Assembly (NCBI GenBank): GCA_051648645.1
Contig: JBOFFP010000010.1
Span: 64,001-128,000, forward strand
Length of the DNA stretch: 64,000 nt
Source of the DNA: Candidatus Rhabdochlamydia sp.
GTDB lineage: Bacteria > Chlamydiota > Chlamydiia > Chlamydiales > Rhabdochlamydiaceae
Direction: 5' to 3'
Part shown: piece by piece, positions 32,644-34,403 of the stretch
Numbering within the stretch: position 1 is the stretch's first letter
Layout: each line of letters begins with the position of its first letter
The notes under the pieces: generated by a model
Told to the model about the DNA's origin: nothing
Database searches by the model: none
What the model saw: the letters and a program-made list of their open reading frames with translations, nothing else
Translations under genes and position numbers: made by a program

Positions 32644-32943
32644 ATGACTCAATCAATTAACAATCGAATACAGAATTTCTTTGTTAAATCTCATGTAAAC
32701 ACTCAAGATGAAATAGATGTAAATTTGCAAAAAATGGCTGAAAGCTTAGCACCTTTAAATCAACAGAATATGATGTATGATTCTAAGGATCAAGACGAGT
32801 ATGTCATGATTCCTTTAAACTTTAATTTTAATTTTGGTGGGCATTCTTTTACTGGAAAAGATAAATTATCTTTAAACGACAAAGCAGAACTCAAAACTTT
32901 TACCATAAAAGAATTATTGACATATAGAGAAAATAAAATTTAG
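32644..32943 (+). CDS. 99-aa orphan peptide, putative precursor/substrate of the downstream SdpA/SdpB-like pair
   Basis: Strong RBS AGGAAGGA before ATG 32644; contains DSKDQDEY and LNFNFNFGG; followed by a stem-loop. Confidence 0.7.
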   Translation: MTQSINNRIQNFFVKSHVNTQDEIDVNLQKMAESLAPLNQQNMMYDSKDQDEYVMIPLNFNFNFGGHSFTGKDKLSLNDKAELKTFTIKELLTYRENKI

Positions 32944-32967
32944 CAATCTTTCTTTTTTTAAGAACAT

Positions 32968-33016
32968 CTAAAGCGCCTAAAATTTGTATTCTTATCGGAA
33001 TTTTTAGGTGCTTTAG
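32968..33016 (+). terminator. Stem-loop between the peptide gene and the modification genes
   Basis: Arms CTAAAGCGCCTAAAA and TTTTAGGTGCTTTAG (one G.U pair), followed by GCATTTTT. Confidence 0.75.
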
Positions 33017-33066
33017 GCATTTTTCTATATTAATAATATATTGTTTAAGGATTGTTTTTTTTGAAT

Positions 33067-33600
33067 ATGAAACATTTATTGGAGCTTACAGTTGAGATCG
33101 GTTTATTCATATTATTTTTGGCAACCATCTTAAAAGAATTTGTAATGCAAAATTTCTTTCGCGAAAAACTTCCTCTACTAGGTTGTTTGTTGCCTTCATG
33201 GAGTTTTTTTGCTCCTACTCCCTATAAAACGGATTATTTTTTGTTTTATCGTTTTATTTATGAAGATGATCGTGTCGGAGAATGGAAACCGGTTAATAAA
33301 AATTTAGAAAAACGTCCTTGTTACTCTTTTCTATGGAATCCAGAAAGTAGGTTTCTAAAGGGATTTATAGATATTATCTCCGATCTAATAAAATGCGTAC
33401 GTGTTATGGATAAAAATCAAATATGCGCATCTATTCCCTATTTACATCTCTTACATTTTGTTCATTCTTTTCCTAGGGATTTGTTTGCTTCAAAATTACA
33501 ATTTGTGGTTATCAGTCAATCCAAATTATATAATAATAAACTAGTTTTTTTATCTGAAATACACCCATTTGAAAAAATATGCTACCACTCTTTAAATTAA
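33067..33600 (+). CDS. SdpA-like membrane-anchored protein
   Basis: N-terminal TM helix, LLPSWSFFAPTP, FYR, LWNPESR and QFVV motifs; overlaps the next gene. Confidence 0.65.
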   Translation: MKHLLELTVEIGLFILFLATILKEFVMQNFFREKLPLLGCLLPSWSFFAPTPYKTDYFLFYRFIYEDDRVGEWKPVNKNLEKRPCYSFLWNPESRFLKGFIDIISDLIKCVRVMDKNQICASIPYLHLLHFVHSFPRDLFASKLQFVVISQSKLYNNKLVFLSEIHPFEKICYHSLN

Positions 33601-34403
33601 GTATTGAAACAGCCTACATCTATTCTTTAGGAGTTTTATCGATTGGTCTTATCATTTCTTCAATTGAAGATATTATAAGATGGCATGTGTTTGAAACCTC
33701 CGGAATTTTAAGCTGGCAAGTTTCGCGTTTAGCTCGTCAATGGACTGCAAAAGGATTAGTTGCAAAAATATTAAATATGTTTTTAAGAGATGCATCTTTT
33801 AAGGTTTGTATATATTTAAGGTTAATTATATCTGTTTTATTATTTATTTTTTGTTTATTTAATGCTATATCTACAGTTATCTTGTTTTTATCGTTTTTCT
33901 TGTTATTACTATATATGTTAAGAAGTCCATATGGACTTAGCGGCTCCTATCAAATGAGCATGGTTATTGTATTTTCTTTATTTGTAGGGAGCTTATTTGG
34001 AATCTATTCAAAAAGTTCCATTTTTTGTATGTGGTTCATCTCCGGACAATTGCTTCTGTCCTACTTTATTGCTGGTATTAGAAAAGCCTTATCTCCGATA
34101 TGGAGAAAAGGCGATGCTATGCATGATATTTTTAGTACCTCTGCATTTGGCCATCCTCTTATTCATAAATTGATTCAAGTTAAAGGATTTGCATGTGCTT
34201 TAAGCTGGCTGGTGATTTTTTTTGAAATGTTATTTTTTATGATCTTGTTTATCGATCCGAAGTTCTTCACTCTTTTTTTTCTTGCAGGATTTTTATTTCA
34301 TTTAGCTAATGCTTTTTTTATGGGACTAAATAGCTTTTTATTTGCATTCCCTGCAACTTATCCAATTCTTTTCTATTGTATTCAATCCCAAAGACTACCT
34401 TAG
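33579..34403 (+). CDS. SdpB-like / HTTM-domain polytopic membrane protein (vitamin-K-dependent carboxylase-related)
   Basis: RSPYGLSGSYQM, GQLLLSYFIAGIRK...W..G, IFFEMLF and FHLANAFFMGLNSF motifs. Confidence 0.75.
   Translation: MLPLFKLSIETAYIYSLGVLSIGLIISSIEDIIRWHVFETSGILSWQVSRLARQWTAKGLVAKILNMFLRDASFKVCIYLRLIISVLLFIFCLFNAISTVILFLSFFLLLLYMLRSPYGLSGSYQMSMVIVFSLFVGSLFGIYSKSSIFCMWFISGQLLLSYFIAGIRKALSPIWRKGDAMHDIFSTSAFGHPLIHKLIQVKGFACALSWLVIFFEMLFFMILFIDPKFFTLFFLAGFLFHLANAFFMGLNSFLFAFPATYPILFYCIQSQRLP

Follow-up and report, generated by a model that had tools for sequence, protein, structure and literature searches.

A conserved upstream protein accompanies a putative split HTTM-type membrane enzyme in a Rhabdochlamydia genome and in other bacterial phyla

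Membrane proteins of the HTTM kind, such as SdpB and LinG, are described as being required, together with small partner proteins (SdpA, LinL, and DUF5819), for the formation of peptide toxins and antibiotics, and the chemistry that they carry out has not been established. In the present work, we have examined a stretch of 64,000 nucleotides (nt), referred to here as the window, which covers positions 64001-128000 of contig JBOFFP010000010.1 from the 1.67-Mb chlamydial genome of Candidatus Rhabdochlamydia sp. (assembly GCA_051648645.1; genome completeness 93%). The nearest named relatives of the window proteins are from Rhabdochlamydia, in addition to other metagenome-assembled genomes (MAGs) of the Chlamydiota. 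The window contains three neighboring genes, which we will refer to as X, orfA, and orfB, and their best explanation is that they form a three-gene cassette, in which one gene codes for a precursor-like protein and the other two for the subunits of a membrane enzyme of the HTTM kind, a kind that is also represented by GGCX and by the pairs SdpB/SdpA and LinG/LinL. An earlier sequence-only reading of this DNA had proposed a peptide-modification system at this site; what it observed is confirmed by our analyses and its interpretation is supported in part.

The systems that are closest to this cassette have been described to different extents. In the Sdp system of Bacillus subtilis, both SdpA and SdpB are reported to be needed for the processing of SdpC, a protein with a Sec signal peptide and, at its C-terminus, a domain that is hydrophobic. 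The linaridins, as they are described, depend upon LinG (an HTTM protein, corresponding to CrdG and to part of LinH/CypH), LinL, and LinE, for which a role in the dehydration of threonine is suspected and unproven; their precursors carry the motifs FANxxL and PxxxTP, and a gene for an M23 peptidase (PF01551) was noted in one atypical linaridin-like cluster. The carboxylase GGCX is described as a single chain with nine membrane helices, two clamps on the lumenal side by which a propeptide helix is held, and a C-terminal domain. Of most relevance here, a preprint (bioRxiv 10.64898/2026.08.19.745780) predicts that adjacent DUF5819 and HTTM(-DCC1) proteins form a GGCX-like complex, in which the DUF5819 helix replaces a GGCX helix and its domain is located at the position of a clamp. 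This complex is described there as being without the second side of the GGCX clamp and its usual substrate channel is called blocked, with Lys189 and, six residues later, Trp195 at the predicted quinone pocket and an aromatic pair of the small subunit nearby. The same source presents MloH, a bacterial carboxylase, as a fusion of an HTTM and a DUF5819-like region. The enzyme pair described below belongs with SdpB/SdpA, LinG/LinL, and DUF5819/HTTM. As this preprint has independently predicted a split GGCX for the DUF5819 and HTTM pairs, the view that two such genes form one split enzyme, which the sequence-only reading had also reached, gains support and is no longer new.

The cassette occupies positions 32644-34403 of the window within an AT-rich gap, where every element that had been described for it, viz. 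X, a stem-loop and the overlapping orfA and orfB genes, all in the same orientation, was found. The peptide strings quoted in that description (GQLLLSYFIAGIRKALSPIWRKGDAM, FHLANAFFMG, and SWSFFAPTPYKTDYFLFYR) likewise all occur in the translations. The features of the cassette, with protein lengths in amino acids (aa), are as follows:
32632-32640, plus strand: Shine-Dalgarno-like sequence AAGGAAGGA, 3 nt 5' of the ATG of X, as read from the sequence
32644-32943, plus strand: X, a precursor-like protein of 99 aa, open reading frame (ORF) from ATG
32967-33017, plus strand: stem-loop between X and orfA, with a 16-bp stem (32967-32982/33002-33017) followed by a U-run (33021-33025)
33052 (TTG, 182 aa) or 33067 (ATG, 177 aa) to 33600, plus strand: orfA, ORF
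33579-34403, plus strand: orfB, ORF of 274 aa, which overlaps orfA by 22 nt
These three genes are real and conserved, with 14 close homologues of orfB and 10 of orfA detected in the first searches. The stem-loop region (32935-33070) has a minimum free energy of -29.8 kcal/mol (z -3.7), with 0 of 200 shuffled sequences folding equally well, and the structure looks like a terminator or an attenuator.

The largest of these genes, orfB, encodes a polytopic membrane protein with about 8 helices in an AlphaFold2 (AF2) model, which was built upon an alignment of 14 sequences and has a mean confidence (pLDDT) of 85.4. Its close homologues (n=14), which are mainly chlamydial, show 31-72% identity to it. 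When the model was compared with the PDB using Foldseek, the 15 best matches were all cryo-electron microscopy structures of human GGCX (TMq 0.52-0.62). By VIA-align, residues 8-274 of the model aligned with GGCX 59-322 with a Z score of 15.8 (229 residues aligned, root mean square deviation 4.1 Å); the Z scores for the 15 GGCX structures ranged from 15.8 to 12.4, and the next unrelated fold, that of TTYH2, had a Z score of 8.6 over half of the model. On the basis of this predicted structure, we consider the fold relationship of orfB to the membrane domain of GGCX to be solid.

Matches of orfB to curated families are weaker. No Pfam match was found for this protein, and in NCBIfam it matched only SdpB (TIGR04033), with 21.3 bits (E 1.7e-4) over residues 151-255 only, where the cut-off of 178.4 bits is not reached. 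Weak matches to SdpB were also seen for 9 of the 14 close and 7 of the 11 distant members of the orfB family, the best of them scoring 39.2 bits, and one family member matches LMF1 weakly. The HTTM model (PF05090, gathering cut-off 27.7 bits) gave no match at E<=1 for the window orfB or the 14 close homologues; among the 11 distant members, one scored 27.7 bits and another 20.9 bits, and the remote relatives P0016-18, which are related to orfB with E values of 5e-13 to 3e-17, exceed the cut-off. Hence, the earlier description of orfB as a protein of the HTTM, vitamin K-dependent carboxylase or SdpB type is borne out by the GGCX fold, the weak SdpB matches and the remote PF05090 relatives, but the protein itself stays below the cut-offs for HTTM and SdpB.

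In an alignment of 45 orfB sequences from different phyla, the conserved polar residues are E30, R115, Y162, G166, K169, W175, E216, H241, N244, and N251, among which E30, Y162, G166, W175, E216, H241, and N251 are invariant. A lysine is present at the position of K169 in 41 of the 45 members. This residue falls near residue 218 of GGCX, where it was placed by proportion within the near gap-free aligned ranges and not by residue-level alignment. The catalytic base of GGCX we take to be K218, and the structures 9l6r and 9l6s are titled as K217A and K218A mutants. The most divergent relatives of orfB (L054, L056, L057, and L058) have an arginine at the K169 position, and no X-type ORF was found at any of these four loci.

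The partner gene, orfA, encodes a protein with one N-terminal membrane helix, followed by the motif P-S-W-S-F-F-A-P-x-P and then by a mixed alpha/beta domain. The helix and the motif, in the form P-x-W-x-F-F-A-P-x-P, are the hallmark of the family, in which Q145, F146, S163, and H166 are invariant. A search of 1.84 billion representative proteins with the orfA profile identified 1294 clusters at E<=1e-3, of which 758 also pass E<=1e-10, and the best 150 of these clusters are nearly all stand-alone proteins of ~150-200 aa. No curated family in Pfam or NCBIfam matched orfA. For DUF5819 (PF19136, cut-off 27.1 bits), sub-threshold matches were obtained with 30 of 95 members of the orfA family (best E 5e-4), one of 12 distant members scored 20.5 bits, and the window orfA gave no match. 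The nearest clusters in the Protein Atlas are hypothetical proteins, and in the cluster at rank 16 DUF5819 is found on 12% of the members. The SdpA models (TIGR04034/PF17418) matched neither orfA nor its 10 and 95 relatives, and an hhalign comparison with 43 true SdpA proteins gave a probability of 20% (E 0.0011) over 39 columns around the motif. Thus, of the relation to SdpA that had been suggested for this protein, a likeness at the level of the motif remains, but the SdpA model is not matched. Canonical SdpA was not found in the genome of the window in a genome-wide search (93% complete genome), and it was found in one of 301 sampled Bacteroidota genomes. From these sequence comparisons, orfA appears to be an unannotated sister of DUF5819 that is related to SdpA by its motif; as a partner subunit it would be of the LinL/DUF5819/SdpA type, which it resembles faintly as far as DUF5819 and SdpA are concerned.

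The conservation of this gene pair was examined at 62 non-redundant loci containing an orfB relative. These loci are from Chlamydiota, Actinomycetota, Acidobacteriota, Bacteroidota, Planctomycetota, one cyanobacterium, and others, and the system is therefore not special to Chlamydiota, the phylum in which the sequence-only reading had placed it as a novelty. A relative of orfA is present at 60 of the 62 loci; of the two loci where it is missing, one is without any sequence on the upstream side. At 42 loci this gene is found directly upstream of orfB, and at 12 others, which are mostly from actinomycetes, 2.4-4.9 kb downstream. This co-occurrence supports the claim that the two genes form a unit, and orfA is a near-obligate single-helix partner of orfB. 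Within the order to which the window belongs the cassette is sporadic, being found in 8 of 200 genomes, and it is present in three of four other genomes of the same genus. In the Actinomycetota, the orfA profile matched 3 of 401 sampled genomes, which are too few to reach the described linaridin clusters. In chlamydial relatives, a membrane-anchored M23 peptidase usually adjoins the pair or is fused to orfB, as in the fusions of 577 aa (L063) and 592 aa (L066). Additionally, a DCC1-like thiol-disulfide oxidoreductase (PF04134) accompanies the pair at 15 of the 62 loci across phyla. Fragments of ORFs resembling insertion sequence transposases were seen by eye next to some chlamydial cassettes (L006 3587-4053, L059 2944-3424, and L062 3499-3696), and these would fit with mobility of the module.

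The first gene of the cassette, X, has no Pfam or NCBIfam family and no usable match in the Protein Atlas. The protein consists of two conserved stretches (residues ~25-47 and 79-99) around a variable center, and it carries the C-terminal motif T-I-K-E-L-L-T-Y-R, which includes L91, L92, and R95. Its only detectable relative is the syntenic ORF of locus L066 from the same genus, with 32% identity over 75 aa (E 2e-4). The peptide had been regarded as an orphan, but X is a positionally conserved third component: a co-oriented homologous ORF of 93-166 aa is found in the same position at all 15 of the chlamydial loci with enough upstream DNA. The proteins of this chlamydial family share the pattern A-A-K-x-L...E-L-x-x-(Y/F)-F, a hydrophobic segment rich in Ala, Val, and Thr, and the C-terminal sequence L-(D/S)-(I/V)-x-x-L-L-x-x-R. 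In the alignment of these 15 ORFs, R95 is invariant and L91 and L92 are at least 90% conserved.

This plan and its ending recur in the other phyla, where the length and the hydrophobic core of X vary; the proteins are 86-91 aa long in actinomycetes, and ~200 aa or 265-320 aa long in others. The ending is a helix motif, (S/T/D/N)-x-x-(E/Q)-L-L-x-x-R, as in ...GSVDQLLDMR..., ...ASARELLAMRR..., and ...ASAAQLLQARR..., and the residue four positions ahead of the first Leu (S, T, D, or N) can be read as one of the usual N-cap residues of a helix. Hidden Markov models (HMMs) specific for one group detect the X proteins of other groups weakly (E 0.001-0.9), and 17 of the 22 non-self matches are to the ORF directly upstream of the pair. 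A pooled HMM of the motif identified, at E<1, 52 of 9039 ORFs, most of which were seeds of this model; 45 of them are co-oriented and end no more than 700 nt upstream of orfA or orfB, and the 7 that are left represent further copies within these loci. Among the loci outside the seed alignment, 8 have a similarly positioned ORF at E 0.025-0.93 (one of these, L045, being from a seed cluster) and two have one at E 1.9. In total, a motif ORF is located upstream at 44 of the 62 loci, which is the small upstream ORF that had been sought beside the homologues of the pair. Several loci contain 2-4 copies of X, as precursor genes often do. The X of the window is recognized by the pooled cross-phylum HMM with an E value of 0.0036, and with a leave-one-out chlamydial HMM no ORF of the window ranks above it (E 0.013, or 0.48 when L066 is left out). 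That this ORF arose by chance in decayed DNA was considered and rejected based upon its synteny, the match to L066, the motif and the interface prediction that is described below. In a Mucilaginibacter MAG (L050, 5676-8192), three tandem ORFs downstream of orfB carry a helix motif of the form L-(V/I/L)-x-x-R (E 0.11-2.2), and this cassette, counting also its upstream ORF, may serve four X-type proteins.

To examine how X is placed relative to the pair, orfB, orfA, and X were folded jointly, a separate alignment being supplied for each and X being the partner that was scored. The predicted docking of X had a score (ipSAE) of 0.74 in 3 of 3 runs, compared to 0.00 and 0.00 for unrelated partners and 0.19 when orfB was replaced; of 157 solved complexes 116 attain this level, as do 2 of 215 mismatched pairs, and the score, being obtained with our own alignments and three chains, lies outside the calibration of the tool. 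The runs share at least 59% of their contacts, and the pLDDT of the docked partner is 54-58. In the predicted complexes, residues 79-99 of X contact orfA 119-130 and 157-169 and orfB 47-58, and the contacts with least predicted error are those of L91, L92, and R95 with orfA 120-130 and 166-168 and orfB 47-51. The second conserved stretch of X (25-47) is also predicted to contact orfA. The predicted contacts of orfA include its family invariants Q145, S163, and H166, and no confident contact was predicted for the variable center of X. Two conserved handles on either side of a free middle would be the pattern that is expected of a substrate. The suggestion that the pair acts on X in the manner of a system for peptides that are made by ribosomes and modified after translation (RiPPs) would fit with the conservation of X and its predicted docking, but the dependence upon quinone and the modification of X still have the standing of inference.

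In comparison to SdpABC of B. subtilis (and yitPOM), the cassette shows the same kind of three-gene module, with a precursor that has a hydrophobic domain, a small partner (SdpA) and a polytopic HTTM-like protein (SdpB), as these are described. The gene order at the canonical Sdp locus of Arcicella (L068) is also precursor-SdpA-SdpB, orfB shows the weak SdpB matches noted above, and P-x-x-W-x-F-F-x-x-x-P is common to orfA and SdpA. The differences are that the score of orfB (21 bits vs. 178) is far below the SdpB cut-off and that orfA shows no SdpA match other than the hhalign result of 20%. Further, no signal peptide is seen by eye in the X proteins, and the SdpC-like protein of Arcicella is without the LLxxR tail. 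In the genome of Arcicella aquatica (G203), a locus of the present family (L033) and the canonical Sdp locus (L068, on another contig), whose SdpA scores 111.8 bits and thus above the cut-off, are both present, and so these are paralogous systems. The interpretation of the pair as a plain SdpAB orthologue was rejected, as the cut-offs are failed and the pair coexists with a true Sdp locus in Arcicella.

The relationship to linaridins was not considered in the sequence-only reading, and it comes from the actinomycete members of the family. Of the 12 small X proteins from actinomycetes, 9 carry PxxxTP and 6 carry FAN, and therefore the enzyme family bridges to linaridin-type clusters; the chlamydial cassette is without their hallmarks. 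By description, the two systems are alike in having an HTTM-type protein and a small partner beside a precursor with a hydrophobic core, and an M23 gene occurs in the atypical cluster as well as in chlamydial loci. They differ in that the clustering of neighborhoods gave no cluster of alpha/beta-hydrolases of the LinE kind, although no scan aimed at LinE was made, and in that X has a C-terminal follower helix after the core, unlike linaridins, in which the core is described as C-terminal. Four loci from Prauserella and Amycolatopsis (L018, L019, L022, and L023) contain two small X genes each, with PxxxTP and the LLxxR tail, one of them directly upstream of orfB and the other ~5.5 kb away, and genes for an FAD-binding oxidoreductase, a LuxR-type regulator and an ABC ATPase are nearby. 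At another locus (L075, genome G814), where orfA lies within an open frame of 473 aa, a small ORF (10708-10896, plus strand) that is divergent from the orfA/orfB pair ends in ...SPVLATPAIAAGVGLFAAGVAVEEAADN and has PxxxTP (PVLATP) and a hydrophobic core, with no follower helix.

The pair of the preprint (bioRxiv 10.64898/2026.08.19.745780) is similar to the present one in that a single-helix protein adjoins an HTTM protein, in the association with DCC1-like proteins (15 of the 62 loci here), and in the presence of a Lys followed by a Trp six residues on (K169/W175 in orfB and Lys189/Trp195 in the preprint). The residues F47 and F48 of orfA may be likened to Leu59/Phe60 by analogy only. It differs in that the proteins of the window are below the DUF5819 and HTTM cut-offs, and no substrate, upstream precursor gene, X component or docking helix is named in the accessible part of the preprint. 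Relative to GGCX, with which orfB shares the fold of its membrane domain (Z 15.8), the proposed grip of an amphipathic helix by a clamp outside the membrane would be analogous to the described binding of the propeptide; the differences are the ~8 helices of orfB and the one of orfA, the far smaller domain, and the lack of a match at the sequence level. MloH, which was compared by description only, is like orfB a bacterial HTTM enzyme and acts in malonomycin formation on a peptide-like intermediate, but it is fused rather than split, and its substrate is an intermediate of a polyketide synthase-nonribosomal peptide synthetase pathway and not a ribosomal protein.

Based upon these observations, we consider it probable, with some reserve, that a split HTTM enzyme, of the kind seen in the Sdp and linaridin systems, has X as its partner or substrate. 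According to this proposal, orfA would contribute the last membrane helix, which is otherwise missing, along with a domain that binds the substrate like a clamp, so that orfA and orfB would together constitute a split GGCX-like enzyme. X would be its substrate, recognized via its C-terminal "follower" helix in a way similar to that in which GGCX recognizes the propeptide helix; this helix and the second conserved stretch are predicted to dock in a groove formed by orfA 119-130, 145, and 157-169 and the orfB loop 47-58, leaving the center of X free. By analogy with GGCX, a reduced quinone and O2 would give rise to a strong base, by which X would be deprotonated, after which dehydration, epimerization, carboxylation or cleavage could follow. 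The stem-loop after X would set a high ratio of X to enzyme expression. In the model of orfB, the loops with K169, W175, and the X-docking residues contain 13 Lys/Arg residues compared to 3 on the other face, as counted on the model helices. In view of this bias in charge and the absence of a signal peptide in X as judged by eye, the active face of orfB may be cytoplasmic, unlike that of GGCX, although we infer this only weakly. A more general possibility, which we put forward tentatively and with considerable doubt, is that these loci represent a cross-phylum "follower-guided" class of maturation systems, in which the C-terminal helix, N-cap-x-x-(E/Q)-L-L-x-x-R, would be held by a split GGCX-like enzyme whose active face may be cytoplasmic, and this enzyme would carry out quinol/O2 base chemistry on the variable core upstream of the helix.

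The docked helix is, however, equally compatible with a subunit role for X. X could be a third structural or regulatory subunit, e.g., one that replaces the second clamp or the C-terminal domain, with a lipid, a quinone or another protein as the substrate of the enzyme. The stable predicted docking of two conserved stretches of X on orfA and orfB is consistent with such a role, as are the position of X as the first gene of the operon with a strong ribosome-binding site and the description of the DUF5819 complex as lacking the second side of the GGCX clamp (bioRxiv 10.64898/2026.08.19.745780). However, the X proteins range from 86 to ~320 aa with unrelated N-terminal parts and cores across loci, 2-4 copies are present at some loci, and linaridin cleavage motifs occur in the actinomycete proteins, all of which are features of substrates and not of fixed subunits. 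In addition, no X was found at 18 of the 62 loci. We therefore regard a subunit role as unlikely.

A number of observations weigh against the interpretation of the cassette as a precursor-like protein and its split enzyme. Neither orfA nor orfB reaches the cut-off of any curated family in Pfam or NCBIfam. When the sequences of PDB chains were searched by HMMER with the close (A1) and wide (A5) orfB profiles, with orfB 140-274, and with the orfA profiles (A2 and A4), GGCX was never found, and the matches of the orfA profile A2 were at chance level only (E>1). The residue-by-residue alignments to human GGCX that the sequence-only reading had put forward could not be reproduced by any such search. 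The putative catalytic Lys is replaced by Arg in 4 of the 45 orfB members. The AF2 model of orfA is poor (pLDDT 65.4) and gave nothing usable in Foldseek (best E 0.22, TM scores <=0.26), and therefore the role of orfA as a GGCX-like clamp rests upon the preprint on a related family together with a likeness to DUF5819 that is below threshold in the 30 of 95 members where it is seen and that is absent from the window orfA. For X, the motif HMM found no X-type ORF at 18 of the 62 loci, and PxxxTP and FAN were found in none of 32 X proteins of the chlamydial, "big," and "mid" types, including the X of the window and all 15 chlamydial ones. By its sequence the window X is a weak member of its family, backed by position and motif, and its center (EYVMIPLNFNFNFGGHSF) is not hydrophobic, unlike that of most relatives. 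To these points are to be added the equal fit of the docked helix to a subunit role and the position of the docking score outside the calibration, which were noted earlier. Lastly, no M23 or DCC1-like gene lies beside the cassette of the window, unlike its relatives, and because these genes are missing and a neighboring copy is decayed, the cassette may be losing function.

This last point leads to another explanation, viz. that the cassette is here a decaying remnant of a mobile accessory module without a product, whose intact frames reflect the recency of the decay. The decayed neighbor and the other genes of the region are as follows:
29214-30461: OprB-type porin gene, which borders the AT-rich stretch on one side
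30618-31052, plus strand: ORF of 144 aa for a membrane protein with multiple helices, no family match in Pfam or NCBIfam
31066-31986, minus strand: protein of 306 aa with weak TPR matches
32156-32320, minus strand: relic of a second, inverted orfB-like gene, consisting of the C-terminal ~35-50 codons with an in-frame TAA
34585-35322, minus strand: biotin-ligase-family gene, which borders the AT-rich stretch on the other side
The relic was detected by the A1 profile at contig positions 96168-96320 (minus strand; E 1.2e-10, 1 TAA), and its translation reads ...LFFHLANAFLSG, then the stop, then NEFLFAFSATYSILFYCIQS... Over 35 aa it shares 80% identity with the C-terminal end of the metagenomic homologue P0002 (E 1e-11), to which it is closer than to the intact orfB, and it is located ~300 nt upstream of X, the remainder of the gene being gone.

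In support of decay, besides this relic with its stop codon, the nearest relative (L066) has the orfB-M23 fusion of 592 aa, to the first 273 residues of which the window orfB is 74% identical before it ends at residue 274 with nothing M23-like adjacent. The hydrophobic center of the window X is also lost, the region is AT-rich (GC content 0.27-0.30 across 32000-34000, compared to 0.33-0.43 in the flanks), and the family is sporadic in the order (8 of 200 genomes). In contrast, all of the family-invariant residues of orfA, orfB, and X are intact in the window copy, X retaining L91, L92, and R95; the ribosome-binding site, the stem-loop and the overlapping start are intact as well, and the prediction of the complex passes with the sequences of the window itself. 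Decay to a remnant without product is thus, in our view, improbable. Under the interpretation as a precursor-like protein with a split enzyme, the cassette of this genome would be a reduced one, without the M23 module, with an X that has no hydrophobic core, and with a dead second copy adjoining. In view of the relic and the missing M23 and DCC1 genes, the AT-rich gap is partly a gene graveyard in which the surviving cassette is reduced. The 144-aa membrane ORF and the 306-aa TPR protein fill the upstream half of the gap, ~650 nt without an intact gene separate the latter from X, and genes for FtsW/RodA and threonine synthase are found beyond the biotin-ligase-family gene. The only DCC1-like gene of the genome (63.9 bits) is unlinked to the cassette and is found on contig C12 at 156746-157078 (L070 1444-1866, minus strand), between ORFs of 308 and 419 aa.

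Two other explanations concern the chemistry. The first is that orfA and orfB form a machinery for thiol/disulfide exchange or chaperoning that is linked to quinone, comparable to LMF1 or VKOR/DsbB, and that acts together with a DCC1-like oxidoreductase on Cys-containing clients. The DCC1-like gene at 15 of the 62 loci, its fusion to HTTM in an example of the preprint (bioRxiv 10.64898/2026.08.19.745780), the weak LMF1 match of one family member, the retention of the unlinked DCC1-like gene in this genome, and the 2-6 Cys residues near the hydrophobic segment of long X variants would be in accordance with it. However, Cys is absent from the X of the window and numbers 0-2 in most chlamydial X proteins, no conserved Cys pair is present among the invariant residues of orfB, and DCC1 is missing at 47 of the 62 loci, which together make this explanation very unlikely. 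The second, that the pair is a true vitamin K-dependent gamma-glutamyl or aspartyl carboxylase by which acidic residues of X would gain CO2 (+44 Da), as with GGCX or MloH, draws upon the GGCX fold, the Lys that falls, when placed by proportion, close to where GGCX has its catalytic base, the frequent acidic residues in the part of X that separates the core from the C-terminal helix, and the precedent of MloH as a fused bacterial carboxylase (bioRxiv 10.64898/2026.08.19.745780), but we consider it extremely improbable, as X has no conserved Glu/Asp column outside the helix motif and the nearest functional relatives, Sdp and linaridin, are tied in their descriptions to processing and dehydration and not to carboxylation.

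In the literature that was searched, no description appears to exist of the large unannotated family, with its cross-phylum component that bears a follower helix, or of its occurrence in Chlamydiota; closed supplements of linaridin genome-mining studies may list some of the actinomycete clusters. No paper reporting such a cassette in environmental chlamydiae was found in this literature search. The results presented here indicate that this cassette occurs in a part of the environmental chlamydiae, viz. in 8 of the 200 genomes from the order, and that the orfA family, with 1294 representative clusters, escapes the current Pfam and NCBIfam models. The conserved end helix of X, with its predicted docking on both subunits, provides a simple feature that is testable by means of defined point mutants and a minimal three-gene construct. 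If the follower-guided class is real, the docking motif would provide the first general handle on how enzymes of the SdpAB and LinGL types act, and it would mean that obligate intracellular chlamydiae make a modified peptide or small protein via carboxylase-like chemistry.

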